From: a virus
Strand: one strand, 5' to 3'
Virus record (IMG/VR): IMGVR_UViG_3300045988_165319
Span: 1-31,874 of that record
Length of the DNA: 31,874 nucleotides
Translations under genes and position numbers: made by a program
Notes under the pieces: model-generated
What the model was told of the DNA's origin: nothing
The model's database searches: none
Seen by the model: only the letters and a program-made list of their open reading frames with translations
Part shown: positions 4,164-31,874 of the stretch, piece after piece
How the letters are laid out: each line of letters opens with the position of its first letter
Numbering within the stretch: position 1 is the stretch's first letter

Positions 4164-4189
4164 AACCATATCATCAAATGAAAGGAGGA

Positions 4190-4909: not shown

Positions 4910-4919
4910 GGTAGTAAAA

Positions 4920-4946
4920 ATAGCCCTTCTGATTTAGAGGGGCTAT
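4920..4946 (+). other. Hairpin ATAGCCCTTCT-GATTT-AGAGGGGCTAT just after the stop of gene 4190-4909
   Basis: 11-bp stem with one G:U pair. An A-run precedes it and no U-run follows on the plus strand. Possibly a weak terminator or an RNA stability element. Confidence 0.4.
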
Positions 4947-5038
4947 CCCAGCCGGGCGACGTATTTACAATACGCTTAGTCATTCGACCGCTTACGGCTG
5001 TGCAACAGTACTTACGTCTGTAATATCACAATAATAAA

Positions 5039-5067
5039 TATACCCCTTCTAATCAAGAAGAGGTATA
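5039..5067 (+). other. Hairpin TATACCCCTTCT-AATCA-AGAAGAGGTATA upstream of gene 5107
   Basis: 12-bp stem with one mismatch. It shares TATACCCC/GGGGTATA-type arms with the hairpins at 4002 and 4920. Confidence 0.4.
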
Positions 5068-5106
5068 CTATAGGTGCGAGTCATCTAATTTTGAAAGGAG
5101 ATCATT

Positions 5107-5424
5107 ATGACCGCAGATCAAAATACACCTGGTTTTATTGTACCAGATGTAGGTGAGAAGTCAAGATTTCATGTTGATACTTTCGACTCCACCATTCTTT
5201 ACGACAATTATCTAACAAGTAACCAGAAAGTTGTCTATTTCTATTATTGCCAGCACGACCAGATTAGCGAGACGGCTGAGCAAGTCGCCAGTTTTCTTTA
5301 TTTAGGCGTCAGCACCGTAAAAGAGGCATGGCGTCGGCTCGAGGAGGATGGTTATTTGAAACTTATTGAGAAAAGAGGGCGAGTGCGTACGTACGTCGCC
5401 ATTTTTAAGTGCGGGCTATGGTAA
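5107..5424 (+). CDS. Small winged-helix-like DNA-binding protein (105 aa), possibly replication-associated
   Basis: SD GAAAGGAG 7 nt upstream. SETAEQVASFLYLGVSTVKEAWRRLEEDGYL resembles an HTH/wHTH segment. It sits immediately upstream of the initiator gene. Confidence 0.45.
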   Translation: MTADQNTPGFIVPDVGEKSRFHVDTFDSTILYDNYLTSNQKVVYFYYCQHDQISETAEQVASFLYLGVSTVKEAWRRLEEDGYLKLIEKRGRVRTYVAIFKCGLW

Positions 5425-5441
5425 AGAATAAGGAGGGTAAT

Positions 5442-6500
5442 ATGTCAAGCCAAAATAAGCAAAACTATCTATTAACGCCACAATCGCTTTTTGCGTGTGA
5501 TAAGTTCAGCTTAGCCGAGAAGGTGGTATTGGCTAGGGCGATGAGTTTCGGTAATCATCGCTATTACGAGTCGGTCGAGAAGACAGCATCGTTCTTGGGT
5601 ATAAGCGAGTCGGCAGTTGAAAAGGCGAGGGCTAAGTTTATCAAGCTAGGCTACTTTAAGAAGGTCGGCTATAGCAACAATAGGGTAGTTTATGAAGTAT
5701 GTGACGACATTATTGAGAAAGATTGTCAAGTGAGAAGAATTACAAAGAATGACATTTCTTTTTGTCCGAAACAATCGCAGAATGTGCAACCAACAATCGC
5801 AGAATGTGCGATTTCTCAAAACGATACATATATATATAATAATAAAGAAGATAATAAAGATATAACCCCCCTAAACCCCCCCATGGGGGGTTGTGTGGGG
5901 CAAAAAGACAAAAATGATGAAAAAGGAGAGGTTGACAACATATTTAATTTATGGCTTAGCTGTTTTGGGCTTTCGGAGCGTAAATTGACGCCCGGTCGGC
6001 AAACGAAGATTAGGCGACGTTTGAAGGATTGCGGTAAAGACCAGCTGGAGCTGGCTATCCGCAACGCTAGCCAGGACTACTTCTACCGTGGCGACAATGA
6101 CCGTGGCTGGCAGGCGGACATCGACTACATCTGCCGTTCAGCCGAGATTGTCGAACGATTAGCAAACATGACACCTAGGAGTGAACGCCCTATGACCTGG
6201 TGGGAAGAGAAGCAACAACGTGAGCTTGAGCAGTGCGCTCCCCGCTACGGCGGGTCGGAGCGGGGGTATACCGTGGCGGAAGAGGACGACGACCTGGTTA
6301 TTGCCTCCCCCGACTCTGCTCCCAATCCCGATGCTAAACCGACACCCGAGAAAACAGATAAGCCAGATCAGGATGAAGCTCCTGTCCCGCTGGACATGGA
6401 TGAGCTAAGGAAGCGATTTCTAGAGGGTAAAGCCAGGGCTATCAAGAGAAGGGATGAGGCTTTGAGCAACGATGAGGCGAGAACGAAGGTTGGCTTATGA
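5442..6500 (+). CDS. Replication initiator / phage replisome organizer (N-terminal wHTH plus C-terminal DnaD-like conserved phage C-terminus)
   Basis: Likely start is the ATG at 5442, with AAGGAGGG 6 nt upstream (the track start at 5409 lacks an SD). The N-terminus LAEKVVLARAMSFGN...SFLGISESAVEKARAKFIKLGYF is wHTH-like. The C-terminus DNIFNLWLSCFG...LELAIRNASQDYFYRGDNDRGWQADIDYI matches the replisome-organizer C-terminal family. Iterons lie inside the gene. Confidence 0.65.
   Translation: MSSQNKQNYLLTPQSLFACDKFSLAEKVVLARAMSFGNHRYYESVEKTASFLGISESAVEKARAKFIKLGYFKKVGYSNNRVVYEVCDDIIEKDCQVRRITKNDISFCPKQSQNVQPTIAECAISQNDTYIYNNKEDNKDITPLNPPMGGCVGQKDKNDEKGEVDNIFNLWLSCFGLSERKLTPGRQTKIRRRLKDCGKDQLELAIRNASQDYFYRGDNDRGWQADIDYICRSAEIVERLANMTPRSERPMTWWEEKQQRELEQCAPRYGGSERGYTVAEEDDDLVIASPDSAPNPDAKPTPEKTDKPDQDEAPVPLDMDELRKRFLEGKARAIKRRDEALSNDEARTKVGL
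5771..5809 (+). promoter_or_regulatory. Iteron pair ACAATCGCAGAATGTGC x2 with 22-bp periodicity (putative origin inside the initiator gene)
   Basis: Two exact 17-mers at 5771-5787 and 5793-5809. They are followed by a ~55-bp AT-rich tract and the palindrome CCCCCCATGGGGGG. Confidence 0.55.
5877..5890. promoter_or_regulatory. Perfect 14-bp palindrome CCCCCCATGGGGGG next to the AT-rich tract (origin-associated)
   Basis: Read directly. It lies at the end of the AT-rich stretch 5815-5870. Confidence 0.5.
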
Positions 6501-6592
6501 CCACTAAAAACGCCACTAGACGCATTCTGAGGCACTTTCTAGCCGTTTTTATAGCCAAGATGGGTATTTACCCTACTTTGGGGCTAAAACGT

Positions 6593-6653
6593 CACACAGA
6601 GGCTCTGGTGCGGTCTGAGGGGGTGTTTTGTGGGAGGGTAGGTCTTAGCATTC
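6593..6653 (+). repeat. Conserved G-rich element, copy A (CACAGAGGCTCTGGTGCGGTCTGAGGGGGTGTTTTGTGGGAGGGTAGG)
   Basis: Near-identical copies at 15313-15364 and 31182-31229. The pseudo-ORFs translating as HTEALVRSEGVFCGR are by-products of this repeat. Confidence 0.85.
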
Positions 6654-6692
6654 ACGAGATTGCTTTTTGCCCGCCCCGAATTAGCTCGGGAT

Positions 6693-6721
6693 TTGACAAA
6701 GCGGTATCGTCTTGCTACAAT
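6693..6721 (+). promoter_or_regulatory. Early promoter P2 (TTGACA-N17-TACAAT) with the conserved leader
   Basis: Consensus -35, 17-nt spacer, TACAAT, then ATCATCAATGAAAGGAGGAATGATGAG. Confidence 0.7.
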
Positions 6722-6746
6722 CGCCGTATCATCAATGAAAGGAGGA

Positions 6747-7205
6747 ATGATGAGTAAAAATAAGGGCGTCGTCTATCAGTTGATAGCTTTCAATCGGCAG
6801 ACGAAGGAGGAAGTCGTGGTGGGCTACGGTAGTCTCAACGAGATTTGCGAGCTGATCTACACCGACTACAACTACGATGGGGAGATTACGCTGGCTGACG
6901 AGGATGCTTACGATGCCGTCGTCTCGGTTATTGAGGCGATCCGCAATTCATTGCCGACCGTGGGGCGTAAGGAGGGCGGTTATGACGTGCCGAGCGATAT
7001 CGTGGAAGACATACGGCAAAGCGTCGATGTTGCCGTTACGGACTACGTCGCTCACGCCCATAGGTTGCTGTCGGCTCGAAGTCGTCACCCTGAGCGCACT
7101 AAAGTAGAGCGGTTTAACCAGTACTTTGACAGGATGATAGCCGGCTTTAAGCTTTGTGAGGATAACCCGAGCCTTGTCCATGAGGAAGAAAAGTCGGGTG
7201 ACTAA
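6747..7205 (+). CDS. Hypothetical protein (~152 aa)
   Basis: Start at the ATGATG at 6747 or 6750, downstream of AAAGGAGG. The track start at 6660 is upstream of the promoter. Confidence 0.5.
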   Translation: MMSKNKGVVYQLIAFNRQTKEEVVVGYGSLNEICELIYTDYNYDGEITLADEDAYDAVVSVIEAIRNSLPTVGRKEGGYDVPSDIVEDIRQSVDVAVTDYVAHAHRLLSARSRHPERTKVERFNQYFDRMIAGFKLCEDNPSLVHEEEKSGD

Positions 7206-7668
7206 AGTGCCCATAGCCGGGTATATCGTCAAGTTGGACGATGGGGCTGAGGTGTCTCTGACCGCTCCGCTTGATTGCCGATCTAATCGGTCAAGCCTAA
7301 ATAGCGTTTTACGTCGCTATCTCGCCAAGAACTATCCGGGGCTCCGCTCTTCGGCGACTGACTACCAGGTGGTTATCGATGTGGAGGCGACGGCTAAGAA
7401 GGTCGAGGAATTGGTAACCTATCGGCTACGTCGGCAGGGCTTTACGGTCAAGCGGGAGGCTAGTGTCGGCGGTGTGGTCTTGGACTATTACAAGCCCGCC
7501 GACAAGAATAAACCGACTGGACACCACCGTTTCGATCCGCTATATGCCACCTATCACACTGTTTGGGGTGTAGATGGAGTGGAGTGCGGTAGGGTCTGCT
7601 ACGACATGGACGGCGGTAAGCATGGCGAGGTATTCGTCGACCCTGTTTATTTAGAGGATATTTACTAA
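7156..7668 (+). CDS. Hypothetical protein; start uncertain (alternative starts at 7180 ATG or 7198 GTG)
   Basis: Long ORF that overlaps the previous gene by 50 nt if started at 7156. AGGAAG lies 9 nt before the GTG at 7198. Confidence 0.4.
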   Translation: MRITRALSMRKKSRVTKVPIAGYIVKLDDGAEVSLTAPLDCRSNRSSLNSVLRRYLAKNYPGLRSSATDYQVVIDVEATAKKVEELVTYRLRRQGFTVKREASVGGVVLDYYKPADKNKPTGHHRFDPLYATYHTVWGVDGVECGRVCYDMDGGKHGEVFVDPVYLEDIY

Positions 7669-7681
7669 GAAAGGAGAAGAC

Positions 7682-7876
7682 ATGAAAGATAAAGTGAAAG
7701 CCAAGTGTAAAGAGATAATGGCTAAATTAAAGAGCAATAAAGTCAATGGGGCGGTCAAGGTTGGGCTGGCTATCTATTTAGCGTTTTGTGTGTTAGTGCT
7801 GGTGCTCGGTTGCGTGATTTTAGCGCAATCTATCGGCTTTATGAAGGCTATCTTGATGCCGTGGCGTCGGCGGTAG
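7682..7876 (+). CDS. Small membrane protein (64 aa, one TM helix)
   Basis: SD AAAGGAGAAG 4 nt upstream. Hydrophobic segment VGLAIYLAFCVLVLVLGCVILA. Confidence 0.5.
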   Translation: MKDKVKAKCKEIMAKLKSNKVNGAVKVGLAIYLAFCVLVLVLGCVILAQSIGFMKAILMPWRRR

Positions 7877-7897
7877 TTTGAGGGAGAGGAGGTTATT

Positions 7898-8518
7898 ATG
7901 CAGACACCTGAAGGAAGAGCTAAAGCGCTCAAAACGATGAGGGAGCGTTACGGCGATGATTACTTTAAGCGAGTAGGTCGGCTCGGCGGTTCGAGCTATC
8001 ACTCCAAGCCCCGTGGCTTCGCTTCCGACCCTGAGCAGGCTCGGATAGCGGGGCGCAAGGGCGGAGCTAAGTCACGTCGTCAACGTGATAGTGCATATAT
8101 CCTGCCAGGCTCGTTAGACAGCGAGACAGTGCGACGGATCATGTGGCAGGCGATTAGTCAAAATCGGTCGCTTTATAAGTCGATTAAGTCCATTAACGCT
8201 GACATGTTTAGCGCCTCAAAGAATGATATCGTTTGGGTGACTGAAGATGTGGTGCGTGAATACGTGGGGTGGACGGTTAGCCCAAATAGCATTATTAAAC
8301 AGGGCGTGCTTCGACATGGGGTGGATAAGCCTGTCGTCTACTGGTATCGGGTGATATGTGCCCACGACATCAAGAATAGTAATATCAATATCATCCTAAT
8401 ACTGAACATTGGCGACACTACTTATTCGCTTTATTGGGACGTTACCACCGAGCGCCCCGCCCGTCTGGGGCGAGCTAAAGACATTAAGTGCGCTGAGACT
8501 GAGTTATCCACACCTTGA
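7898..8518 (+). CDS. Protein with an N-terminal KGG-repeat (stress-protein-like) domain (206 aa)
   Basis: The N-terminus ERYGDDYFKRVGRLGG...GFASDPEQARIAGRKGGAKS is paralogous to the 77-aa protein at 22911-23144. SD GGAGAGGAGG. The last codons ELSTP lie inside the repeated promoter module. Confidence 0.55.
   Translation: MQTPEGRAKALKTMRERYGDDYFKRVGRLGGSSYHSKPRGFASDPEQARIAGRKGGAKSRRQRDSAYILPGSLDSETVRRIMWQAISQNRSLYKSIKSINADMFSASKNDIVWVTEDVVREYVGWTVSPNSIIKQGVLRHGVDKPVVYWYRVICAHDIKNSNINIILILNIGDTTYSLYWDVTTERPARLGRAKDIKCAETELSTP
8504..8512 (+). promoter_or_regulatory. DnaA-box-like TTATCCACA upstream of P3
   Basis: Exact 9-mer read directly. Confidence 0.45.
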
Positions 8519-8543
8519 TGTAAATGTGGCTATGCTATAGGGC

Positions 8544-8572
8544 TTGCGTCTTGGGGTGGGGTGAGATATAGT
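8544..8572 (+). promoter_or_regulatory. Early promoter P3 (TTGCGT-N17-TATAGT) with the conserved leader
   Basis: The segment 8500-8570 is about 90% identical to 10882-10952. Confidence 0.65.
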
Positions 8573-8598
8573 GTGTGTATCATCAAATGAAAGGAGGA

Positions 8599-8775
8599 AT
8601 GATGAGAAGCAGTAAACTCAACTTTCACCGAGTTGGGGGACGGGTGGTTATCGAGCGAGACGATGATTACTTTCTGAAGTCCGACATTGTCGGCTTAAAG
8701 ATTAGCCTGGGGCTGATAATTGCGCTGTTTGCGCCATTAGCTATCCATGCTGTCGGGGCGTTGTTCGTGGAGTAA
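8599..8775 (+). CDS. Small membrane protein (~58 aa)
   Basis: ATGATG start after AAAGGAGG. Hydrophobic C-terminal helix GLIIALFAPLAIHAVGALFV. Confidence 0.5.
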   Translation: MMRSSKLNFHRVGGRVVIERDDDYFLKSDIVGLKISLGLIIALFAPLAIHAVGALFVE

Positions 8776-9065
8776 TGTGTATGTGTAGCGGTTTACTTAA
8801 AGAGGAGGGCTTACGAGTAAAAGCAACAAGAAGGTTAGCCAAGCTACCCAAGCCAAGTTGGCTGTCACAGGTAGCCGGCTATCTCGGTTCAAGATTTACT
8901 TTGAAGCAACATAGAGGGAAGTCTCGTCGGACAAAGCGGGAGATTGAGCGTCGGCACAAAGTCTTTGACGATACTCGCCCTCATGACGATATGGACGATT
9001 TAATCAGGGCGTTGGAGTTTGAGAACTTTATGCGTGATGATTATGTCAAAGAAGGTAGTCGGTGA
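8775..9065 (+). CDS. Hypothetical basic protein (96 aa)
   Basis: ORF with start/stop overlap (TAATG) to its neighbours, typical of translational coupling. Confidence 0.45.
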   Translation: MCMCSGLLKEEGLRVKATRRLAKLPKPSWLSQVAGYLGSRFTLKQHRGKSRRTKREIERRHKVFDDTRPHDDMDDLIRALEFENFMRDDYVKEGSR

Positions 9066-9358
9066 TTGGTAAGCTCGAGCCTGTCGTTCATCTTGAAGAT
9101 GGGAAGGAGGTAGTGGCTTGGCGCTGGCGGAAGAAGTACTTCAGCAAGCGGTCGCCCGGTTCACCTTACCGACATGGCGGGAGCTGGTTTACTCTGTCGA
9201 GCGACTCGGGTGGCTCGTGGATGGCTTGGCAGGATGTGCCTAGTCGGAGCGAAGACGGACAAATAATGTACTCGGAGGGGTCGCAACCCGTTACCACCGC
9301 CGAATACGAGAAGTTAGATAAAATGCTCGCCGAACGTATGGGCGGAGCAGGGAGGTAA
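9062..9358 (+). CDS. Hypothetical protein (98 aa)
   Basis: Overlapping start (GTGA), tightly packed. Confidence 0.45.
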   Translation: MIGKLEPVVHLEDGKEVVAWRWRKKYFSKRSPGSPYRHGGSWFTLSSDSGGSWMAWQDVPSRSEDGQIMYSEGSQPVTTAEYEKLDKMLAERMGGAGR

Positions 9359-9363
9359 ATAGT

Positions 9364-9708
9364 ATGAAAATGACAATGACAATCGATGGCAATAAGGGGC
9401 TATCGAGCCTGGCTGACATGATTAGTGATACGGCGAGGCTTGGGATAGCTGTCGTCACTATAAACGCCATGGCAGAGGCTAGTTGCGATAACTATTCTGA
9501 CCAGAGCGCCACATTTCACGAGGGGATGCTGGCGGTAGCCACCGAGATGGTTATTTATGGCGGGTTAGTCTATGACGCCCTTATTCACGCTGAGATGAAG
9601 GCTGTCGCCGATAACTTTCTGAAGGAGCTGAACGACCTGCGTAAAACCCAAGCTAAATATAGTGAGATGCATAAAAAGGCTCTCCGAGAAGCAAAGGAGG
9701 AGCAGTAG
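9364..9708 (+). CDS. Hypothetical protein (114 aa)
   Basis: SD GGAGCAGGGAGG upstream. Confidence 0.5.
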   Translation: MKMTMTIDGNKGLSSLADMISDTARLGIAVVTINAMAEASCDNYSDQSATFHEGMLAVATEMVIYGGLVYDALIHAEMKAVADNFLKELNDLRKTQAKYSEMHKKALREAKEEQ

Positions 9709-9710
9709 TC

Positions 9711-10091
9711 ATGGAAGCTGATTTGAAGGTAGCGATGTTTGACGAGTCGGTGACTAGTAAGATTAGAGAGCTGGCGTCGAGTGCGCTTAAAACATGGCTA
9801 AAGAAAGTTGGCGATGACAAGTCGGACAATCAATGGTATATCGAGAAGTGCCTGCGCCAAGTCATGGCTCACTCGGACTGGGTTGGGATAAATACAGCCG
9901 ACACTTTTCACGATTTTAAGAAGTGTAATATCGATTATGTTGATATTGCCGACAATGTAGCCGGGGTCGAGTCGGCGAATACGCCCTACTATCTCGTTAT
10001 CTTCAATATCGACGACAGTCGCTACGTTGCTCGCTTCAGCTTAGCGGGTGGGGTGATGGTCGACGAGCGGATGGACTTAGGAGACGACTAG
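9711..10091 (+). CDS. Hypothetical protein (126 aa)
   Basis: SD AAGGAGGAG upstream. Confidence 0.5.
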   Translation: MEADLKVAMFDESVTSKIRELASSALKTWLKKVGDDKSDNQWYIEKCLRQVMAHSDWVGINTADTFHDFKKCNIDYVDIADNVAGVESANTPYYLVIFNIDDSRYVARFSLAGGVMVDERMDLGDD

Positions 10092-10474
10092 TGGCGTCGG
10101 TACGCTCCTCCAATATCAAGTTTGCCTCGGATAGGCTGGCTAACGATGAGATGAGTATCATTGTACGGCGTCGGATAGCTCAATGCATGGACGCTGTCGA
10201 TAACTGGTGGTCAATCAACTATAAACGCCTAAAACGTAACGAGTTTTACGAGACTACCGAGACATTGCAGGAGCTGGTCAAGTCACATCGCCCTATCGGT
10301 CTGGTTGGCGAGATGATTTACAAGGCTAGGTCTGATGTTGAGTATATGGGCGTAATCAGCACAGCCTGGCTAGTTGAGGGGTATGTGTCCCATTCGGGAC
10401 ATTCCCTCTCCAGGTTGCAATGGATTGTGGTTGATGTTGGTAAGTATCGCTACTACTGCTCGCACTACTTCTAG
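10091..10474 (+). CDS. Hypothetical protein (127 aa)
   Basis: GTG/ATG overlap start. The gene fills the gap. Confidence 0.45.
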   Translation: MASVRSSNIKFASDRLANDEMSIIVRRRIAQCMDAVDNWWSINYKRLKRNEFYETTETLQELVKSHRPIGLVGEMIYKARSDVEYMGVISTAWLVEGYVSHSGHSLSRLQWIVVDVGKYRYYCSHYF

Positions 10475-10489
10475 TAGTATCATGGTGAT

Positions 10490-10900
10490 ATGAATGATGA
10501 CGATTTTGCTAAGCCGACAGACGGCATCCTGGGTGACGGGGTGCTGTCTTTTCGGTTAGCCCAGCTTTATGTTGGTGAGCCTAGGTATCACTGGGTCTAT
10601 CGCAACTATCTGGATCGCTTTACCCTATATCCTGTCGCTAGTGACAAATATCGAGGGCTACTGATTGTGCAGGTGGGCTTTGGGCGGGTGAGGCTACGGA
10701 CTCGAACGGGGGCGTGGGCTACCGAGCGATTGCGCCATATATCGATAGCTTGCGCTAAGCTACATAGTCACTTCAATTACGCTGTAGCTATCGTTACTAC
10801 TGCCGAAGACGCCAAGGCTATCTATCAATCATATGTTGACGGGACGAGCTATATCGATAACTTGACGGCTAATGCCTGCGGTGAGTTATCCACAGCTTGA
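10490..10900 (+). CDS. Hypothetical protein (136 aa)
   Basis: The ORF ends with ELSTA inside the repeated promoter module, paralleling the ELSTP ending of 7898-8518. Confidence 0.5.
   Translation: MNDDDFAKPTDGILGDGVLSFRLAQLYVGEPRYHWVYRNYLDRFTLYPVASDKYRGLLIVQVGFGRVRLRTRTGAWATERLRHISIACAKLHSHFNYAVAIVTTAEDAKAIYQSYVDGTSYIDNLTANACGELSTA
10886..10894 (+). promoter_or_regulatory. DnaA-box-like TTATCCACA upstream of P4
   Basis: Exact 9-mer read directly. Confidence 0.45.
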
Positions 10901-10925
10901 TGTAAATGTGGCTATGCTATAGGGC

Positions 10926-10954
10926 TTGCGTCTTAAGGTGGGGTGAGGTATGAT
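10926..10954 (+). promoter_or_regulatory. Early promoter P4 (TTGCGT-N17-TATGAT) with the conserved leader
   Basis: Same module as P3. Leader is TATCGTCAATGAAAGGAGGAATGATGAG. Confidence 0.65.
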
Positions 10955-10979
10955 ACTTGTATCGTCAATGAAAGGAGGA

Positions 10980-11330
10980 ATGATGAGTGAAAATAAGGAC
11001 AGTGGCGACATGGAGCAACTGCTCATAGCGATGAGTGCTACGTGCACGTTGCTGGAATGTGCAATAGCTGATCATAGCAACAATCATAGCCTGGTAGGGA
11101 TGTGCGCCATAGCTAACGAGCTTCAATGTCACGCCCGTGCTGTCTATAAGGCACTTACTATGGACAAAGTGGGCAAGTCGAACAGTGGGAGATTTAGCCT
11201 CGAGGAGAGTATTGACGAGCTGGAGGAGTTGATAACCGAGGCTGAGGCGTCAATGCTTATGAATAAGCTCGTGGATGGATGTAGGGCGATGTCCGGCGCC
11301 GGTGAGTCGAAGGACGATGATGGCGAGTAA
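10980..11330 (+). CDS. Hypothetical acidic protein (~116 aa)
   Basis: ATGATG start after AAAGGAGG. The C-terminus is Asp/Glu-rich. Confidence 0.5.
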   Translation: MMSENKDSGDMEQLLIAMSATCTLLECAIADHSNNHSLVGMCAIANELQCHARAVYKALTMDKVGKSNSGRFSLEESIDELEELITEAEASMLMNKLVDGCRAMSGAGESKDDDGE

Positions 11331-11886
11331 AAGCCAATCGCCACACGACACGATAGTTGGGCTTTGGCGGTGGCTGAGAAGCGGTTATATCAAGGGTAAA
11401 CTGGAGGGCAAGACAGTCCTCGATTCATGCTGTGGCGGGAGGATGTTTTACTTCGACAAGCATCATCCGCTCGTCATATATGGCGATGTACGTCAAGAGT
11501 CCGTCTCTATGACTGATCGGGGCAAGTTTAGGTCTCTGGACATTACTCCGGATGTAATACTGGACTTTACCTGTATGCCGTTTTTAGACGATAGCTTCAA
11601 CTTTGTGGTTTTTGACCCGCCTCATCTCGTGAATTGCGGTGAGAAAAGTTGGCTGGCGAAGAAGTACGGCAAGCTCGACAAGGACAGTTGGCAAGATACA
11701 TTGAGTAAAGGCTTGAGCGAATGTATGCGTGTGGTTAAGCCCGGTTGCGTCGTGGCTATGAAGTGGAGCGAGGGCGACATATCGACGGCTAAACTTCTAA
11801 GGGTATTGCCCTATAGCCCAGCCTTCGGCGATAAGCAAGGCAAGAAGCGATGGTTATTTTTTATTAAAGGGATGAAAGGAGAGTAG
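11317..11886 (+). CDS. Putative SAM-dependent DNA methyltransferase (small, motif I then DPPH motif IV)
   Basis: VLDSCCGGRMFYFD is an FxGxG-like motif I. FNFVVFDPPHL is a (D/N)PP(Y/F/W/H) motif IV. Likely start is MMASKS at 11317 (the track start at 11275 overlaps the previous gene). Confidence 0.5.
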   Translation: MMASKSQSPHDTIVGLWRWLRSGYIKGKLEGKTVLDSCCGGRMFYFDKHHPLVIYGDVRQESVSMTDRGKFRSLDITPDVILDFTCMPFLDDSFNFVVFDPPHLVNCGEKSWLAKKYGKLDKDSWQDTLSKGLSECMRVVKPGCVVAMKWSEGDISTAKLLRVLPYSPAFGDKQGKKRWLFFIKGMKGE

Positions 11887-11887
11887 A

Positions 11888-12490
11888 GTGATCATTTATA
11901 AACTAAAGGAAGATTGGTCGTCCTTTAAGGCTGGCGAGAAGTTCACTGCAAGTAGTTATGGTAATTTGTATCAGCTCGTCAACGATGACGGTGAGCTAGC
12001 TGACGGTAAGCTAGTGCTTGCTAAAATACAGCCAGACCTATTAGATAAGGTTGGTGATGGCGATTATTGGAAGCCAAAAGCACACGAGCACTACTATTTT
12101 ATAGATGATGCAGGGGACGTTGACGTGGACACATTTTGTCTTACTACGAATTACGACAACAACAGATTTGCGCTCGGTAATTGCTTTAAGACCAAGGAAG
12201 ATGCACAAGCTATGGTTGCTTGGCTCAAAGCTCGACAGAGGTTGATTGAAAGTGGAGCTATATTCATGAATGCGTCTGATGCAGACAAAGGTAGCGCCTA
12301 TTATAACGTTACTTTTGACAAAGATAGTTGCGAATTGATGGCGCGTCAGGTTTATAGCCTTGATAACTATGTCGCTGACAGAGCGTTATATTTTGACGAC
12401 TGTGAGTCCGCTAAGATAAGCATCAAAGAACATAAAGACGACTGGCTGATATATCTCGGCGTGAAGGAGAAGAGTGGTGGTAATTCATGA
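11888..12490 (+). CDS. Hypothetical protein (200 aa)
   Basis: SD AAAGGAGAG upstream. No domain recognised. Confidence 0.5.
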   Translation: MIIYKLKEDWSSFKAGEKFTASSYGNLYQLVNDDGELADGKLVLAKIQPDLLDKVGDGDYWKPKAHEHYYFIDDAGDVDVDTFCLTTNYDNNRFALGNCFKTKEDAQAMVAWLKARQRLIESGAIFMNASDADKGSAYYNVTFDKDSCELMARQVYSLDNYVADRALYFDDCESAKISIKEHKDDWLIYLGVKEKSGGNS

Positions 12491-12848
12491 CCTTGGTGCC
12501 GAAGCTACGGATATTGAACACTTGCGGACGGCGTGGCTCATCCGGACAGACATAGACGTTGTTAAGTATTCTGACGTCTCAGTTATTCGCTACATCGATG
12601 ATAGTAGCGACCATCGATATGGCACGTTTGTCTACCAGTTAGGAGGCGGGGCTTGGCGTATCGCTCGGATTGAGCGTGGATCGAGCAACAAAAAACTTGT
12701 TGTCACTCAAAAGAGCGATAAGGTCTATGCCCTACACGAAGTAATTCCCGCCTTAGCTAAAGGTGGCTATCACGGGGCTAAACAGATAGCTAGTTACATG
12801 ATGAAGCATTTCGGTTTAGACGAGGCGACAAGAGATGACCAAGACTAA
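12474..12848 (+). CDS. Hypothetical protein (124 aa)
   Basis: Overlapping, coupled ORF. Confidence 0.45.
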   Translation: MVVIHDLGAEATDIEHLRTAWLIRTDIDVVKYSDVSVIRYIDDSSDHRYGTFVYQLGGGAWRIARIERGSSNKKLVVTQKSDKVYALHEVIPALAKGGYHGAKQIASYMMKHFGLDEATRDDQD

Positions 12849-13038
12849 AAGACACTTTAACTTTGTTGATTTTATGGGCAGTGCCTGCGTCGTGGTGCTG
12901 GCGTTAGCATTCATCTATATGATATGCGCCTACGCCTTCTTCATAACCGACGACGCGTTAAGAGAGAGGCAAAAGAAGATAGACGGCTGTTGCGCTCAGT
13001 GTAAAGATTTAAGCAAGAAGAAAGGAGAGAGAAAATGA
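12835..13038 (+). CDS. Small membrane protein (67 aa)
   Basis: TM helix ACVVVLALAFIYMICAYAFFI. Cys-rich basic tail. Confidence 0.4.
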   Translation: MTKTKRHFNFVDFMGSACVVVLALAFIYMICAYAFFITDDALRERQKKIDGCCAQCKDLSKKKGERK

Positions 13039-13307
13039 TAAAAGGTGGCGACGGAGCACGATTTGGCTTAGCGTGTGTGATAGGGCTGTTGCTCGAGATT
13101 GTTCGAATAGTAGCAATAGCGGGGCTGGTGATCGTGGCGATATGTTTTGCCCGTGACACTATTCATAGTGCCACCCTGCCCGACGAAGACCAGGCTCAGT
13201 GTGAGAGCTTGGGTGGTCGATGGTCGGTCAATCACCAGTGTTATAACGCTGGTGAGCCGACGACTATTAAGAAGCTAAAAGAGAGCTTGAGGAATACGGC
13301 ACGATGA
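13035..13307 (+). CDS. Small membrane protein (90 aa)
   Basis: SD AAAGGAGAGAGAAAATG. TM helix LACVIGLLLEIVRIVAIAGLVIVAICF. Confidence 0.45.
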   Translation: MIKGGDGARFGLACVIGLLLEIVRIVAIAGLVIVAICFARDTIHSATLPDEDQAQCESLGGRWSVNHQCYNAGEPTTIKKLKESLRNTAR

Positions 13308-13912
13308 GTGAGAATAAATACAAGACCATTTATACGGACATAATGCCCGCCTATCGTGAGTCTGAGGATTACTGTCGTATGACGCTGGATATGCTTAAGC
13401 ACGCCATCGCCGGCATGGATACGGACGCAATGAGGGATGCTTACGATAAGCTAACCAAGTGCTTCGACGACCTAACTAAAACCGTGCAAGAGATATCGAT
13501 GCGGTTTAGAGAGGTGTCGGAACTTTTAGACGACTGTCTTGACGATAGTCGCCAGCCAGAAATAGACGAGGAACAGTACTCCGTGTATTGTGTCGGTGGT
13601 GGGCTATTATTAGACCCGCTAGAGGTTAGACACTGGGTATCCGAAGCGTTGCCTCACGCCTCTGTGCGCAGGGCGTGGTATCACGTCCCTTATAACCTAA
13701 CGCTCAAACGAGGGGTACTGGTATGCGAGCTCAATGGCGAGCATGGTTCGACATATCGGATGGCGTTACTTAGGTGTTATCCGATGCTCGACTTTGACGA
13801 TGGCGAGTATTCACTCAATAGTGTAATAAGACGCCTTTCGCCACACGACAGGGGGTACGGAGCTAATATGATTAGTAGACGTTTAAGAAAGGAGAAGAAG
13901 AATGAAGGATAA
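13304..13912 (+). CDS. Hypothetical protein (202 aa); N-terminus paralogous to the next gene
   Basis: EDYCRMTLDMLKHAIAG...LTKCFDDLTKTVQEI resembles DDCHLTIKVLKQHVAK...VGERFDELNDTVEAI in 13902-14489. Confidence 0.5.
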   Translation: MSENKYKTIYTDIMPAYRESEDYCRMTLDMLKHAIAGMDTDAMRDAYDKLTKCFDDLTKTVQEISMRFREVSELLDDCLDDSRQPEIDEEQYSVYCVGGGLLLDPLEVRHWVSEALPHASVRRAWYHVPYNLTLKRGVLVCELNGEHGSTYRMALLRCYPMLDFDDGEYSLNSVIRRLSPHDRGYGANMISRRLRKEKKNEG

Positions 13913-14489
13913 TCGGACTAAGAAGCTGGATAGACTTGTTGGGCAATATCGCATTAGCAGAGATGATTGTCACTTGACTATTAAAGTATTAAAGCAACAT
14001 GTCGCTAAATACAATGACGCTGACCTGGCTAATGGGGTTGAGCTTGTCGGCGAGCGGTTCGACGAGCTTAACGATACAGTAGAAGCCATTGTGGCGACTG
14101 CCCAAGAAGCGTGTAAGCCGACAGGAAGCGACGCCAATAGCCCAAAATGGACTCCCCTGCAGGATAATCTACGCAAGTATGAGCAGGACGAGATTATGGA
14201 TACCCTCTTTGAAGATATCGACGTTGACGAGATTATCTACTATGTAGAGTATAGCTTCCGCCCCGCTGATTGTCTGATAGTCTGCCGAGACAAAGCCGGT
14301 GACTGGTATTGTCGAAGCATTAAATTAGAGGATGGCTACGGTTTAGATTGCATGTACGACGATTGTGGCTTAACTAAGTTTAGTGCGGTAGGGATATATG
14401 GCTTGATGAAGTTGCATGACTGGGTTAGCAATTCGATGATGGCTACTCATTTGAAAACGGAAGGGTATCTGGCTGAGTATCTGAAATGA
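13902..14489 (+). CDS. Hypothetical protein (195 aa); paralog of 13304-13912 in its N-terminal part
   Basis: SD AAAGGAGAAGAAGAATG. Shared N-terminal pattern with the preceding gene. Confidence 0.5.
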   Translation: MKDNRTKKLDRLVGQYRISRDDCHLTIKVLKQHVAKYNDADLANGVELVGERFDELNDTVEAIVATAQEACKPTGSDANSPKWTPLQDNLRKYEQDEIMDTLFEDIDVDEIIYYVEYSFRPADCLIVCRDKAGDWYCRSIKLEDGYGLDCMYDDCGLTKFSAVGIYGLMKLHDWVSNSMMATHLKTEGYLAEYLK

Positions 14490-14908
14490 CCGAGGCTGAT
14501 TTACAAGTGCAAGTAGCTTATTACCTCAGGTTGCAATACCCTGACGTCATTTTTCACTCCGACTATGGCTCGGGGGTGAGACTAACCAGGTATCAAGCTA
14601 ATGTGCAACGTAAACAGAATGGTGGACGTCGAGCCTACCCTGATATGTTTATTGCCAAGATGATGAACGGCAAGGGTGGGCTATTTATTGAATTGAAAAA
14701 GGAGGGCACTAAATTAAAGAAGAAGGACGGCACTTGGCTCACCTCTCATCTGGCCGAGCAGGCGGAGATGTTGGAGAAGCTTAAAATGGAAGGGTACGAG
14801 GCTTATTTTGGGGTAGGTTTTGATAATACTAAGGCAATAATTGATAGCTACCTAGGAGGGACTAATGAACAAGAAGATACCGATGATGACCCGACAAGCG
14901 TTTTCTAA
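14486..14908 (+). CDS. VRR-NUC domain nuclease (PD-(D/E)xK superfamily)
   Basis: YPDMFIA ... GGLFIELKKEG gives the D...E-x-K catalytic pattern in the VRR-NUC arrangement. A helical tail follows. Confidence 0.55.
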   Translation: MTEADLQVQVAYYLRLQYPDVIFHSDYGSGVRLTRYQANVQRKQNGGRRAYPDMFIAKMMNGKGGLFIELKKEGTKLKKKDGTWLTSHLAEQAEMLEKLKMEGYEAYFGVGFDNTKAIIDSYLGGTNEQEDTDDDPTSVF

Positions 14909-15251
14909 ACTGGTAAATATCATCATTGAACAGTCAAAACGGGACAGAGAGTTTACTCAGGCTCTCAATAAATACACCGCCCCGAAGGGCAAGACGGGTG
15001 ATTGTGAGTTCATGAGTGATTGGCTAAGTGAGGACATTCTGTCAATCATCGATGATATCTTCGGCTATCCCGCCAGCAACTATGTCGGCTGGTGGATATG
15101 GGACTGTCCTAGTGCGGGCGAAGCGTCCTACGATGATTGCACGGTGACCGCCGACGGCAAGAAGTGGTGTATTAAGACGACTAATGATTTATACGACTTT
15201 TTAGCTGATGAAGTTATGCCCGGCAATATCGGCGAGTCTGACGTGATATAG
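14865..15251 (+). CDS. Hypothetical protein (128 aa), last gene of the early block
   Basis: SD AGGAGGG 5 nt upstream. Followed by a terminator hairpin. Confidence 0.5.
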   Translation: MNKKIPMMTRQAFSKLVNIIIEQSKRDREFTQALNKYTAPKGKTGDCEFMSDWLSEDILSIIDDIFGYPASNYVGWWIWDCPSAGEASYDDCTVTADGKKWCIKTTNDLYDFLADEVMPGNIGESDVI

Positions 15252-15280
15252 TCCGAGATATTTTATCGCTTTATTGTTAA

Positions 15281-15310
15281 AGATGAGTATATACTCATCT
15301 TTTTATTTAT
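15281..15310. terminator. Bidirectional intrinsic terminator between the convergent early and late blocks
   Basis: 20-nt perfect palindrome AGATGAGTATATACTCATCT followed by TTTTTATTTAT on the plus strand and TTTAACAATAAAG on the minus strand. Confidence 0.7.
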
Positions 15311-15312
15311 CA

Positions 15313-15364
15313 CGTCACACAGAGGCTCTGGTGCGGTCTGAGGGGGTGTTTTGTGGGAGGGGTG
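15313..15364 (+). repeat. Conserved G-rich element, copy B, between the terminator and the HNH gene stop
   Basis: CACGTCACACAGAGGCTCTGGTGCGGTCTGAGGGGGTGTTTTGTGGGAGGGG. See copies A and C. Confidence 0.85.
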
Positions 15365-15365
15365 G

Positions 15366-15698
15366 TTACCAGGCGTTACTTAGCGGTATAGGGCAATCCG
15401 AGTTTAACTCCATGTGGTCGCTGTCCATTCGCTTGCCTTTGCGCCGATTACACCTAAAGCACAGCGTCTGTAGGTTCGATATTTCATACGGTGCACCACC
15501 TCTAGCTAGCGGTACGATGTGATCTATTTCGACGGCTTGGGCGGTACAGCGAGGGGCATTCTTGTCAAGCGGTTTACCGCATATGGCGCAATGAATATCG
15601 TCGCCCGCTAGGTCAAGCACCCTCTTGCGAGCCTTCTCCCACGCATCAGGGTTCCACATTGTACCATCGGGCAGGACGTGCCATCTATGTTTAGGCAT
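15366..15698 (-). CDS. HNH endonuclease
   Basis: CAICGKPL...EIDHIVPLARGG...NLQTLCFRCNRRKG is a classic HNH Cys-box/His-Asn-His pattern. It is the last gene of the late block. Confidence 0.8.
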   Translation of the reverse strand: MPKHRWHVLPDGTMWNPDAWEKARKRVLDLAGDDIHCAICGKPLDKNAPRCTAQAVEIDHIVPLARGGAPYEISNLQTLCFRCNRRKGKRMDSDHMELNSDCPIPLSNAW

Positions 15699-23153: not shown

Positions 23154-24638
23154 TTACCAGAGCATCACTTCTTGTTGAGTCTCACCGTCATTACCTGCTA
23201 TTACCCGCCTAAAACGGTTAGCACCATAGTGGGCTAGGGCGACGGCTTCTACGGGGTCGGTCTGTACTTCGGGGTTGATTGAGGCGAAGCCAAAAGCCCC
23301 ATCTCTACCGATATCCCTGGTTTTAGCCACCCTAATAGCCATATTGAGGGCGGGCTGATTGTAATGGGTGATTGTCTTGTTCTTGACGGCTTGATAAAAG
23401 CCCCCAAAACCTGCCCCGACCTCTCTGACGTTGGGGGTGAGGATCTTCTTTTTCATCCGTCTATCACTTCGGATTAGGTCTTCGATTAGGAGCTGTGTAC
23501 CTGATGCTCCGTCGATGATTATCTTCTGTGCTTTATCACGGCGTGGTAGTAGCCACCTGGTTATCCAGCTAATTCCTGCCTGCAAGGGTCTACGGTCGAT
23601 TAGCTCGACGTGGATCTTATTATTGGGCATAACCACCCCGACGGCTAGGCTGACGAAGGCTCTGTCGGGTGAAAACTTAACAGCATAGCAAAGGCTTGGC
23701 TTATCAGGCAATACTACCTCTTTAACCGCTAATTTATTCCATTCCTCAGTCTTAAAAGCTCGATCCGAGTCTACCCCTCTCACCCAGCCTAGACGCATCT
23801 TATTAAAACTATCCAAGCTCATGGTGCTTGACTCGGCTTCGACCGCACCTAACTGCAGAAAATAGCCCAAGCTGGGGTTAGTGTCATACCAGGCTTGTCT
23901 GACCTTCGGGTCGGTGACGGTCTCTACACTCCACTCCCGCCAGGCTACGTGAGTAGCTTTACCGCTGATAGTATTCTCCCTAACTCGCATAAATGTAGTA
24001 CCTCTAGCCCCTGCCGGTGGGGGTGTGCCTGCATAAATCATCTGATAGTTATGGTTTCGCCCCGCCGAGATTGTCGGTCGGAGGGCTTCCTCCTGGGCGT
24101 CTGTGAGCTCCTGCGCTTCATCTATGATTAGGGTGTCATTAGTAAAGCCAAGTCCAGAGTCTCTCGTCCTTGTCCTAAAGACACACCGTCCACCATTGCG
24201 CAATTCGATATAGTCGAGGCTTTTCGGCTCGTTATTGAACTCATCAGTGAGCATATTGCGCAATTCCTGCTTTGCTCCATAGAAAAACTGAAAGACAAGA
24301 CGCTTAATCTCGTTTACGGTGACGACGGTGTGAGCGGTGTAGACTAGTGTCTCTCCCTCACACACCATACCCGTGATAATCCTGCTCCTAAGTAAAAACG
24401 TCTTGCCGTTCTGGCGTGGTAACAATAGCCCACACTCATGGTTTGACCAGTCGCCGTTGTCGTCTTGCATCATCCACTGGCGCAAGGTGTCCTCCTGCCA
24501 TGGCAGGAGCTTATCGCCATACGACTCCATCAGTTCAATGCCAATATCAGCCAGGTATGGGTCGCCTTGCTGAAAGATATCAATGCGTGGCTTTTGGCTA
24601 CCATAGCGAGGTAGGGTGCTTGCCGTCTGCTGTGCCAT
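23154..24638 (-). CDS. terL: Terminase large subunit
   Basis: Walker A LLLPRQNGKT, Walker B TLIIDEAQ, C-terminal nuclease-like region. 494 aa. Confidence 0.9.
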   Translation of the reverse strand: MAQQTASTLPRYGSQKPRIDIFQQGDPYLADIGIELMESYGDKLLPWQEDTLRQWMMQDDNGDWSNHECGLLLPRQNGKTFLLRSRIITGMVCEGETLVYTAHTVVTVNEIKRLVFQFFYGAKQELRNMLTDEFNNEPKSLDYIELRNGGRCVFRTRTRDSGLGFTNDTLIIDEAQELTDAQEEALRPTISAGRNHNYQMIYAGTPPPAGARGTTFMRVRENTISGKATHVAWREWSVETVTDPKVRQAWYDTNPSLGYFLQLGAVEAESSTMSLDSFNKMRLGWVRGVDSDRAFKTEEWNKLAVKEVVLPDKPSLCYAVKFSPDRAFVSLAVGVVMPNNKIHVELIDRRPLQAGISWITRWLLPRRDKAQKIIIDGASGTQLLIEDLIRSDRRMKKKILTPNVREVGAGFGGFYQAVKNKTITHYNQPALNMAIRVAKTRDIGRDGAFGFASINPEVQTDPVEAVALAHYGANRFRRVIAGNDGETQQEVMLW

Positions 24639-30719: not shown

Positions 30720-31066
30720 CCGTTTATCTCCTCCGCTGTAAAGTATCTATTCCATCTTGTAGGGGTGTTCTCTGCCATAAATGAGTCGCCATCTTGATAG
30801 ACATGGTAAATATGCCCATCCCAAGTGACCTCACTATCACTAACGTCGCTATCGTCGGCTTTGGGAAGGTGGATGCGGACTAGCCTTTTACCTGCCGTCA
30901 CCGCCTGTTGCTCACGGGCTGACTGCGGTTCGACGAGCGGTTCGATTAGACAATCGTCAATTTTAATGGTCTTAAGCGAATGGGTTGGCTCACCGATACT
31001 GTTCGGCTTACCCTCAACCCGCTTGGTAAATGTCAGTGTCGTGCCTTTCAGTGCCATATTGTCCAT
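30716..31066 (-). CDS. Head-tail adaptor (Phage_H_T_join family)
   Basis: CLIEPLVEPQSAREQQAVTAGKRLVRIHLPK ... VTWDGHIYHV matches the head-tail joining consensus. Confidence 0.55.
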   Translation of the reverse strand: MDNMALKGTTLTFTKRVEGKPNSIGEPTHSLKTIKIDDCLIEPLVEPQSAREQQAVTAGKRLVRIHLPKADDSDVSDSEVTWDGHIYHVYQDGDSFMAENTPTRWNRYFTAEEING

Positions 31067-31072
31067 ATTATA
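31067..31072 (-). promoter_or_regulatory. TATAAT hexamer abutting the first ATG of the late block (possible leaderless-type start)
   Basis: Minus strand reads TTGGCTATAAT ATGGACAATATGGCA. There is no SD, and transcription would initiate at about the second ATG. Confidence 0.35.
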
Positions 31073-31143
31073 GCCAATAATCAGCCGTTTTGGCTACATG
31101 CCGTGTGGTTTATTCTCTGCCCGTTTTGTCGCTTTATTGTTAG

Positions 31144-31171
31144 AGATGGGCATGTACCCATCTTTTTGTTT
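31144..31171. terminator. Terminator hairpin AGATGGG-CATGTA-CCCATCT plus T-run (variant of the 15281 hairpin)
   Basis: Compared with copy B, the stem carries compensatory A>G and T>C changes. Followed by TTTTTGTTT. Confidence 0.6.
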
Positions 31172-31181
31172 AGGACGCCGT

Positions 31182-31229
31182 ACAGAGGCTCTGGTGCGGT
31201 CTGAGGGGGTATTTTGTGGGAGGGTAGGT
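31182..31229 (+). repeat. Conserved G-rich element, copy C
   Basis: TACAGAGGCTCTGGTGCGGTCTGAGGGGGTATTTTGTGGGAGGGTAGG. Confidence 0.85.
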
Positions 31230-31326
31230 ATCTCCCTTGACAACGCCCTCAATAAATGTCTCCAGATATTTTAGCTTTATACGGCGGACACAGCCCCGTT
31301 TTACAGTAGTGGGGACGCCCCCCTGT

Positions 31327-31346
31327 CTTGACGTCATGACGTCAGG
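31327..31346. promoter_or_regulatory. 18/20 palindrome CTTGACGTCATGACGTCAGG (two abutting TGACGTCA units), putative operator
   Basis: Read directly. It is flanked by inverted TTGTCAAGGG motifs and followed by a ~70-bp AT-rich tract. Confidence 0.5.
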
Positions 31347-31477
31347 TTGTTGTTTTTATATCTACAAAATGGGTTGAAAAACGTTTTTTATTCAATAAAT
31401 TGGTTGATCTGTCAAGCTGGGGCGGTGGGGGTTCTTGTTGGACATCAAGTGGGTGCTTTGTCAAGGGCTACTGCTAT

Positions 31478-31500
31478 TGGCTGGGGGCTGGGGCTGGGGA
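31478..31500 (+). repeat. (GCTGGGG)3 G-rich microrepeat; related GCTGGGGGCTGGCGCTGGGGCTG at 31778-31800
   Basis: Read directly. Both lie just 5' of a 189-bp-repeat-like segment. Confidence 0.7.
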
Positions 31501-31586
31501 TTAGTGTTCGGGTGGGGCTGTAAGCCCGCCCGGGTAGCCACTAATCGGCTCACCGACCACCTGGTCGCCCGCCTGCTGGCTAGGCT

Positions 31587-31775
31587 CTAGCCCCTCTCAC
31601 CCCGCCCGTCTGGGCGGGGCTTCTTTACGCCCTTTATCTTATTATTGTGCGACATTAGGGGTTAGCGTTAGGGCTATATGTTTATGTGTCTTTGCTTTTT
31701 ATCGGGGCTTAGGCGGGCGCTGGTGCGGTCGTTTATCAGCATCGGTTAGGTGTCTTGTCAAGGGCTACTACTGTT
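31587..31775 (+). repeat. 189-bp direct repeat, right copy (DR-R)
   Basis: Exact copy of 527-715. A partial extra copy of its 3' part (GTCAAGGGCTACTGCTATTGGCTGGGGGCTGGGGCTGGGG) lies at 31459-31498. Confidence 0.9.
31600..31630 (+). terminator. Second copy of the DR terminator hairpin
   Basis: Identical to 540-570 because it is part of DR-R. Confidence 0.6.
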
Positions 31776-31815
31776 ACGCTGGGGGCTGGCGCTGGGGCTG
31801 TAGCGCTCAGCCTCT

Positions 31816-31874
<59 letters not shown>

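Follow-up and report, generated by a model that had tools for sequence, protein, structure and literature searches.

The locus at positions 31234-31586 of this phage sequence raises the question of what a large intergenic space crowded with inverted motifs, a palindrome, an AT-rich tract and G-rich repeats does for the phage. The original prediction saw in it either a control region of the origin or packaging type, with multiple protein-binding sites flanking an unwinding element, or the operator region of an early/late switch. Analysis of the window, by which we mean the whole stretch of 31,874 nucleotides, leads us to regard the region as the junction of the chromosome ends and hence as the cos packaging site, a reading to which we assign a probability of roughly 80% on the evidence of contig ends.

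The window represents a siphophage-like genome of approximately 31.8 kb from human oral metagenomes. Both of its ends consist of (TAG)n, and three independent oral-metagenome contigs cross this tract; the window is therefore a circular-type assembly whose break lies inside a real microsatellite. The structural operon runs on the minus strand from 31057 down to 15366 and encodes, in order, head-closure-like and tail-terminator-like proteins, scaffold, capsid, portal, adaptor, large terminase, tail tube, tape measure, Dit and a small HNH nuclease. Early genes, an O-like initiator among them, occupy the plus strand at 4178-15251, and the minus strand from 3619 to 698 carries a ParB-methyltransferase, an endolysin and a 299-aa protein. 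From this layout, the region is a large intergenic space reaching from the end of the 3619-698 gene group to the start of the structural operon. BLAST searches of GenBank phages with the whole window and with the region returned no match, an Rfam search of the region identified no family, no tRNA genes were found, and an exact-protein look-up of the window's first two late proteins returned no record.

Relatives were therefore collected from metagenomes by two routes. The 75 members of a cluster of near-identical first late proteins led to further oral-metagenome assemblies, and an alignment of the first late protein, run against metagenome contigs, yielded 63 distantly related loci with 37-59% identity; one distant relative is a 63.5-kb contig carrying the gene twice (L066/L069). 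Among the close relatives, which form the window lineage at approximately 91% identity, L297, L298, L303 and L304 span the junction described below, while L001/L295, L300, L302 and L305 start at it. Members of this uncultured phage family are widespread in metagenomes from the mouth, fresh water, wastewater and the rumen. Oral samples that contain the phage of the window include ERR589377, ERR589602, SRR19400555 and SAMEA10741150. A Candidatus Saccharibacteria genome bin includes one member of the family, and the host is probably a member of the Saccharibacteria.

The chromosome ends can be located from the points at which contigs of these relatives begin and stop. Among the 63 distant loci searched, 22 contigs begin at one identical base, directly after a 12-mer that in the window reads 5'-TCCGCCGTATAA-3' on the late-operon (minus) strand and TTATACGGCGGA on the plus strand, and that the wider family keeps as TCCGCYGTRTAA. 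The shared start reads AT(G/A)CCGAATTT and lies 63-72 nt before the first late gene; many samples and assemblers contributed to this set, in which several contigs have the full genome length of 32-34 kb. In two further relatives (L035 and L044) an Illumina adapter (...CGCTCTTCCGATCT) is joined straight to the same left-end base, and a physical DNA end must therefore have existed there. On the other side, scans of viral contigs for the G-run motif supplied four right-end contigs (L191, L204, L238 and L308), all of which stop at ...(T/G)AC, the base before the 12-mer (TCCGCC...) and exactly 20 nt past a block reading ...GGTCGCCC. L191 and L036 appear to be the two ends of one 32,404-nt contig, as both are 32,404 nt long and their sample numbers match. 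At least 13 distant relatives read through the junction as ...GAC/TCCGCYGTRTAA/AT..., and in permuted relatives it takes the form ...AACAGGGGGGGAGGTCGCCC-N20-/TCCGCYGTRTAA/AT.CCGAATTT....

The window's own lineage repeats this pattern. Contigs of four assemblies start at the equivalent of 31276, that of L305 being 31,757 nt long, and the window and its four junction-spanning relatives read through the junction. In total, 24 left ends and four right ends are separated by a clean gap of 12 nt, with the 12-mer missing at both ends of linear contigs. Judged by contig ends, the termini are thus unique and fixed, as in cos phages, and they are joined through a short shared sequence in the window, four close relatives and at least 13 distant ones; on this basis we place the left chromosome end at 31276 and the right end at 31289 (Table 1). 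A few relatives' contigs stop elsewhere nearby, at +18, +30, -20, -33 or in the G-run, and these stops are assumed to be assembly run-through. The right end in the window's own lineage was sought by scanning viral contigs for GACGTCAAGACAGGGGGG, which produced one unrelated match, and through the endolysin, for which a look-up led to one circular-type assembly only. A further scan of viral contigs, with the 16-mer CTTGTCAAGGGCTACT, produced 29 scattered single matches on unrelated contigs, which were dropped as chance matches. The packaging-type part of the original prediction is borne out by these positions, as both ends fall inside the span that it flagged, and the key element, the 12-mer at the cut site, was absent from its list of motifs. 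A cos site is a known kind of phage element; here it is newly located to the base in an uncultured phage family.

Table 1. Coordinates of the features in and around the putative cos site and of the genes proposed to act on it.
Feature	Position	Strand	Details
Small HNH endonuclease, 110 aa	15366..15698	-	PHROG 338 HNH endonuclease, E = 3e-22; possible cos-cleavage helper
Large terminase subunit	23154..24638	-	PHROG 9 "terminase large subunit", E = 2.8e-52; presumed cos nuclease and packaging motor
Late promoter TAGCCA-18-TATAAT (-10 at 31067-31072) and first late start ATG at 31057	31057..31096	-	promoter scan 10/12
106-nt element, third copy (others at 6538 and 15261)	31124..31229	+	between left chromosome end and late promoter
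Left chromosome end, from contig ends	31234..31276	-	reads AGCTAAAATATCTGGAGACATTTATTGAGGGCGTTGTCAAGGG; holds TTGTCAAGGG at 31234-31243
Putative cohesive-end sequence (cosN equivalent)	31277..31288	-	12-mer, unique in window; invariant in 5 junction-spanning lineage sequences
Right chromosome end, from contig ends	31289..31326	-	reads ...ACAGGGGGGCGTCCCCACTACTGTAAAACGGGGCTGTG; G-run = C-run 31318-31323 on plus strand
Palindrome CTTGACGTCATGACGTCAGG (two TGACGTCA units), hairpin then T-run	31327..31346	+	18/20 palindrome; terminator scan
AT-rich tract with AAAAACGTTTTT (31377-31388)	~31347..31407		promoter-like matches in both directions
Unit B: CTGTCAAGCTGGGG, inverted-repeat arm 31441-31467 with TTGTCAAGGG, (GCTGGGG)3	31408..31515	+	aligned to 31700-31817
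Second copy of exact 189-nt repeat	31587..31775	+	stop codon, strong terminator 31600-31619, spacer ending TTGTCAAGGGCTACTACTGTT

All of the elements named in the original prediction lie where it had placed them. Exact copies of TTGTCAAGGG occur at 31458-31467, 31755-31764 and 695-704 on the plus strand in addition to the minus-strand copy at 31234-31243, and allowing up to one mismatch there are six matches against 1.55 expected, a number reached in none of 100 shuffles. Two of the four exact copies are not independent of each other, since both lie inside an exact 189-nt repeat (527-715 and 31587-31775). The inverted pair extends to 27 nt with 78% complementarity (31234-31260 and 31441-31467), CTGTCAAGCTGGGG is present at 31409-31422, and GCTGGGG starts at 31480, 31487 and 31493. 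In plus-strand RNA, the palindrome gives a stem of 8 bp closed by a loop of 4 nt, with UUGUUGUUUUU after it (-9.3 kcal/mol, z = -2.05); the plus strand after it reads TTGTTGTTTTT, and the scan calls the structure terminator-like. The AT-rich tract holds a weak plus-strand promoter match from the scan, TTGAAA-16-TAAATT at 31374-31401, and on the minus strand TTGACA-17-AATAAA, read from the sequence. The hairpin is probably a plus-strand terminator and the AT-rich tract probably promoter DNA. Other signals were also considered: the Neisseria DUS and the Haemophilus USS are absent, and the idea that the G-rich repeats are E. coli Chi sites was rejected, as GCTGGTGG occurs four times and none of the copies is in the region.

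Comparison with relatives divides these elements into two groups. In close relatives only positions ~31234-31410 are conserved. This part includes the TTGTCAAGGG copy at 31234, the AT-rich tract, which is almost invariant in the five lineage sequences and has AT-rich counterparts beside the G-run in distant relatives, and the hairpin palindrome, which is kept in four of the five lineage sequences, altered in its loop in L297 and absent from distant relatives. The (GCTGGGG)3 run is found in the window only, and the second TTGTCAAGGG at 31458, the CTGTCAAG site and CTGTCAAGCTGGGG are missing from L297, which is otherwise intact. The expected conservation of the motifs holds for the first group and fails for the plus-strand TTGTCAAGGG at 31458, for the G-rich repeats and for the partial repeat, which is a cassette boundary duplicated in a strain-specific manner. 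An arrangement of multiple protein-binding sites flanking an unwinding element finds no counterpart in this pattern, the repeats beyond ~31410 being strain-variable.

A replication origin, in which the AT-rich tract would be an unwinding element between repeated initiator sites, might be suspected from the approximately 60 nt of AT-rich DNA lying between repeated motifs and from TTATCCACA, a DnaA-box-like sequence some 600 nt away at window positions 60-68. However, the O-like initiator gene (5409-6500, plus strand) carries its own tandem pair of 18-nt iterons at 5770-5809, the usual place for an origin of this kind; the repeated motifs of the region vary in number or are missing among intact close relatives; and each of the three TTATCCACA copies sits in a repeat just upstream of an early promoter, which fits operators better. 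Positions 31234-31586 hold no iteron-like tandem array and no recognizable iteron/DnaA origin, and we regard an origin here as highly improbable. A role chiefly in transcriptional control of the late operon or of an early/late switch, with TTGTCAAGGG and the TGACGTCA palindrome as operator or activator sites, has more to recommend it and is still unlikely. The complement of TTGTCAAGGG contains TTGACA; approximately 40-50 nt upstream of the late -10, a typical activator position, distant relatives have TTTGCCAAGCG or TTTGACAAGCG; the AT-rich tract is promoter-like in both directions, and the palindrome with its T-run resembles a plus-strand terminator. The late promoter itself, however, lies at 31067-31096, outside the span flagged in the original prediction, and within that span no sigma-70 late promoter or operator was found beyond the weak plus-strand match noted above. 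The TTGACA sequences at 31237 and 31458 have, as read from the sequence, no acceptable -10 partner. In the window lineage, the 106-nt insertion puts approximately 140 nt between TTGTCAAGGG and the late promoter and the motif is nevertheless kept, and the chromosome end falls between the motifs. Control of transcription can coexist with cos for single motifs, but it fails to explain the region as a whole.

For the variable elements, the reading that they have no binding function at all and are recombination leftovers of cassette shuffling in the right arm has about an even chance of being correct, and it is compatible with a cos site, under which it is adopted for units B and C. Unit B repeats, in diverged form, the tail of the 189-nt repeat and the ~45 nt beyond it (31776-31817); it is partly kept in L298, L303 and L304 and wholly absent in L297, and the second copy of the 189-nt repeat is absent from all four. 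That the repeat is a true one is consistent with two short independent contigs (L293 and L294) that start and end inside it; its terminator folds at -19.3 kcal/mol. In L303 a whole module is duplicated, comprising boundary unit, (TAG)n, TTATCCACA-like box, early promoter and small gene, so that copy number and content of the right-arm units differ among close relatives: L297 has one cassette, L303 two, and the window one and a nearly empty one. Given this duplication, and a TTGTCAAGGG copy (695-704) that shares bases with the stop codon of gene 698-1597, the variable elements (second TTGTCAAGGG, G-rich repeats, partial repeat) are best taken for borders of gene cassettes that are shuffled in the right arm, rather than for a set of sites that serve cos. 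The overlap with the stop codon also suggests that other copies may be duplicated gene ends, and the restriction of (GCTGGGG)3 to the window likewise favours recombination leftovers. Against a mere leftover stand the presence of the boundary unit at every cassette boundary, always in one orientation, which could reflect selection for a recombination or regulatory site, and the retention of the minus-strand copy at 31234 beside the chromosome end.

The copy number of (TAG)n differs between strains, from 4 to 21 or more, and the tract directly precedes an operator box and early promoter. One may further speculate that the right arm by cos is a cassette system in which a TTGTCAAGGG/G-rich boundary unit and a (TAG)n microsatellite bracket each small accessory gene, the boundary units driving exchange by recombination and the length of (TAG)n tuning or phase-varying the cassette gene. 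We consider this improbable; if true, it would amount to a contingency locus in a phage probably infecting Saccharibacteria. Several features beside cos are more unusual than the site itself, among them the hypervariable (TAG)n, the cassette structure, the 106-nt element repeated three times and the apparently leaderless late start. The 106-nt element, confined to the oral lineage, consists of a hairpin with compensatory changes followed by an invariant core of ~45 nt. Its interpretation as coding sequence was rejected, as the same frame being open in three copies follows from their shared sequence and the compensatory hairpin changes are not protein-like. Small open reading frames were considered across the region at 31098-31274, 31347-31523 and 31435-31590; the last, of 51 codons, stops at the same codon as gene 174-530, inside the 189-nt repeat. 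As for the late start, the first late gene is head-closure-like, and protein alignment favours its second ATG. In relatives the ATG is preceded, at a distance of 7-8 nt, by TGnTAAAAT or TATAAT, and in distant relatives only ~65 nt separate the chromosome end from the first start codon.

Returning to the cos site, the form of its ends can be approached through library preparation. During end repair, 5' overhangs are filled in and the shared 12-mer would remain at both ends, whereas 3' overhangs are removed and it would remain at neither. The absence of the 12-mer from both contig ends therefore points to 12-base 3' extensions, assuming end-repaired libraries, and the sticky ends are probably 12-base 3' overhangs; the 12-nt gap fits complementary 3' extensions trimmed by end repair, as in HK97-type cos phages. 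One might suppose instead that the ends are real but carry 5' overhangs, are blunt, or form short terminal repeats distorted by library or assembly, given that the 3' polarity is read solely from the missing 12-mer and that contigs ending at +18 or +30 or starting at -20 or -33 could hint at a short terminal redundancy. However, with terminal repeats or with 5' overhangs that had been filled in, both ends should show the shared sequence, whereas the 24 left ends and four right ends are gapped by 12 nt; the odd ends agree neither among themselves nor with a k-mer length in common use. Ends of such another form thus seem rather unlikely to us.

Conserved blocks are found on both sides of the 12-mer. 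Inside the left end, positions +13 to +43 (31264 down to 31234) are nearly invariant and positions +4 to +12 variable among nine sequences. Distant relatives have TTTGCCAAGCG or TTTGACAAGCG at ~+22, to which TTGTCAAGGG of the window corresponds in position only, with an offset of ~11 nt. As the small-terminase site of HK97 lies at +15 to +29 (PMC11331095), this block is the best candidate for a small-terminase recognition site. On the right-end side, conservation among 23 distinct family sequences is highest, apart from the 12-mer, in the G-run and the GG.C.C.C after it; the length of the G-run is 6 to 8 within the window lineage. This family-invariant G-run may be a second terminase contact, by analogy with cosQ.

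These elements suggest a scheme in which terminase, acting on replicated DNA that is concatemeric or circular, would introduce two nicks 12 bp apart, at 31276/31277 on the late-operon strand and at 31288/31289 on the other. The nuclease would be the large subunit, possibly with the small HNH nuclease as a helper. Recognition would involve one block at 31234-31266, just inside the left end and including the minus-strand TTGTCAAGGG, by analogy with HK97, and a second formed by the invariant G-run that lies 30-40 bp in from the right end. The product would be linear virion DNA whose left end leads from 31276 into the late structural operon and whose right end stops at 31289, each end bearing a complementary 12-base 3' extension, TCCGCCGTATAA and its complement.

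The proteins presumed to act on the site are partly recognizable. The large terminase has no PDB relative detectable by sequence, and the HNH protein matches PDB entry 5h0m_A, deposited as "HNH endonuclease" (E = 3e-4). The HNH gene lies ~7.5 kb from the large terminase gene and ~15.6 kb from cos, and is thus not adjacent as in HK97-like HNH-dependent cos systems; by adjacency the site falls outside that group, although it may share the same mode of action. Searches of Pfam, NCBIfam and PDB identified no small terminase. The only match, a weak one, is that of the C-terminal part of the 299-aa protein encoded at 698-1597 to PHROG 1459 (E = 2.7e-7); this protein found nothing in Pfam, NCBIfam or PDB. 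Other candidates would be the 77-aa, 129-aa and 323-aa proteins encoded beside the large terminase gene.

Location of the cos site fixes the true chromosome ends and the genome map for an uncultured phage family, and it shows that contig ends pooled over unrelated metagenomes can place cos to the base without read data. It also keeps the repeats of the region from being taken for an origin or an operator array. Should such phages become tools for bacteria that are hard to manipulate, cosmid-like vectors or transducing particles could make use of the packaging signal.

A comparison with known cos systems shows both likenesses and differences. The cos site of HK97 has a 10-nt 3' overhang and undergoes HNH-stimulated cleavage (PMC11331095). 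Like HK97-type sites, the site described here has a unique cut site, fixed ends, an inferred 3' extension (12 nt here, 10 nt in HK97) and a conserved block 13-43 bp inside the left end, and the genome encodes a large terminase and a 110-aa HNH nuclease. In contrast to HK97-type phages, the terminase genes are not beside cos: a head-closure-like gene comes first, the large terminase lies ~6.6 kb in from the left end, HNH is the last late gene, far from cos, and no small terminase is recognized. The invariant G-run on the right-end side and, in most relatives, a late promoter within 65 nt of the chromosome end are further differences, and the cos sequence is without similarity to that of HK97. 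With lambda (cosQ-cosN-cosB) the site shares the length of its probable cohesive end, 12 bases, and the presence of conserved elements to either side of the putative nicks. As in lambda, lysis genes occupy the right end and structural genes the left, both on one strand, such that a circular or concatemeric template joins them across cos. Lambda overhangs are 5', whereas the contig ends here point to 3' ones; no R-site array, IHF site or sequence similarity is recognized, and the terminase genes, which in lambda directly follow cos, do not do so here. Among siphophages of Gram-positive hosts, such as the lactococcal Skunavirus/936 group and Lactobacillus LL-H, cos sites have 3' overhangs of ~9-13 nt with G/C-rich tracts nearby, and HNH and terminase genes flank cos. 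One report also ties the HNH gene of such phages to packaging (PMC12967558). The present site resembles them in its probable overhang class (~9-13 nt, 3'), its G/C-rich tract and its HNH gene, and differs in its probable host and in having the HNH and terminase genes away from cos. Taken together, the site probably works most like an HK97-type 3'-overhang cos, with a putative overhang of the length found in lambda, in a sequence common to neither and within an unusual gene order.

The first late gene, a head-closure-like gene at the start of the structural operon, has its late -10 element (TGnTAAAAT or TATAAT) only 7-8 nt ahead of its ATG, and this spacing holds family-wide, which suggests, on sequence grounds, that its mRNA may be leaderless or almost so. 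A repeated early-promoter module has TAGGGCTTGCGT followed by 16-17 nt and then TATAnT. Three of the four copies are preceded by AGTTATCCACA(G/C)..., a putative operator that resembles a DnaA box and carries a CCACA/TGTGG inverted repeat. Coordinates of these and the other features are collected in the table.

Features of the window and of its relatives (L-numbers)
Feature	Position	Strand	Remark
Late promoter and start codon of first late gene	window 31057-31096	minus	also upstream of first late gene in L034-L073
Early-promoter module, 4 copies	window 58-143, 4128-4198, 8500-8607, 10882-10968		all face + strand genes
106-nt element, 3 copies	window 6538-6643, 15261-15366, 31124-31229	+	all in the same orientation
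(TAG)n microsatellite	window 31817-31874 and 1-54		bridged by independent oral-metagenome assemblies
DUF3800-I RNA	window 4910-5028	minus	Rfam match, full length
299-aa protein adjoining endolysin	window 698-1597	minus	also L033 5900-6162
Tandem duplication of left-end motif ATTTGCCAAGCGTTTTTCTG	L061, about 4900-5000		just inside chromosome end

Relatives add to the picture of the inferred cohesive-end packaging site, cos. The 63,555-nt contig OEJR01000037.1 (loci L066/L069) of one relative has two copies each of the first late gene and of the cos junction, 27.2 kb apart; it represents a head-to-tail dimer whose assembly runs across cos. The tandem ATTTGCCAAGCGTTTTTCTG of one relative, L061, is compatible with this motif serving as a protein-binding unit. 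The 106-nt element, which is restricted to the oral lineage (the window and its close relatives), combines a hairpin, which has a T-run and shows compensatory changes, with a downstream 45-nt core (ACAGAGGCTCTGGTGCGGTCTGAGGGGGTRTTTTGTGGGAGGG) that is invariant; one copy lies immediately after the HNH gene and another immediately inside the left chromosome end. A comparison of this element with Rfam returned no match. The match to DUF3800-I RNA, a separate feature, reached 76.1 bits (gathering score 44.2; E = 2.8e-10).

The (TAG)n tract at the window ends is a genuine, hypervariable microsatellite. Independent oral-metagenome assemblies that span it contain 9, 19 and 21 copies, and close relatives have four copies, or 11 with TGG interruptions, L303 carrying two tracts of this latter kind. 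The tract is placed between the TTGTCAAGGG boundary unit, which flanks strain-variable gene cassettes, and the TTATCCACA box and early promoter of gene 174-530. Repeat number also varies in the 299-aa protein, whose EHKPDE repeats broke the assembly of a 97% relative. This protein has a hydrophobic segment at its N-terminus, and its C-terminal part gives a weak small-terminase-like match (PHROG 1459, E = 2.7e-7).

Wherever a sample record names a source, the oral-lineage contigs (L292-L305) come from the human oral metagenome; those of distant relatives stem from numerous other metagenome projects. An oral-metagenome MAG assigned to Candidatus Saccharibacteria includes, by binning, the 29.9-kb close relative L295 (CALIXD010000109.1), and this offers a clue to the host of the phage lineage.
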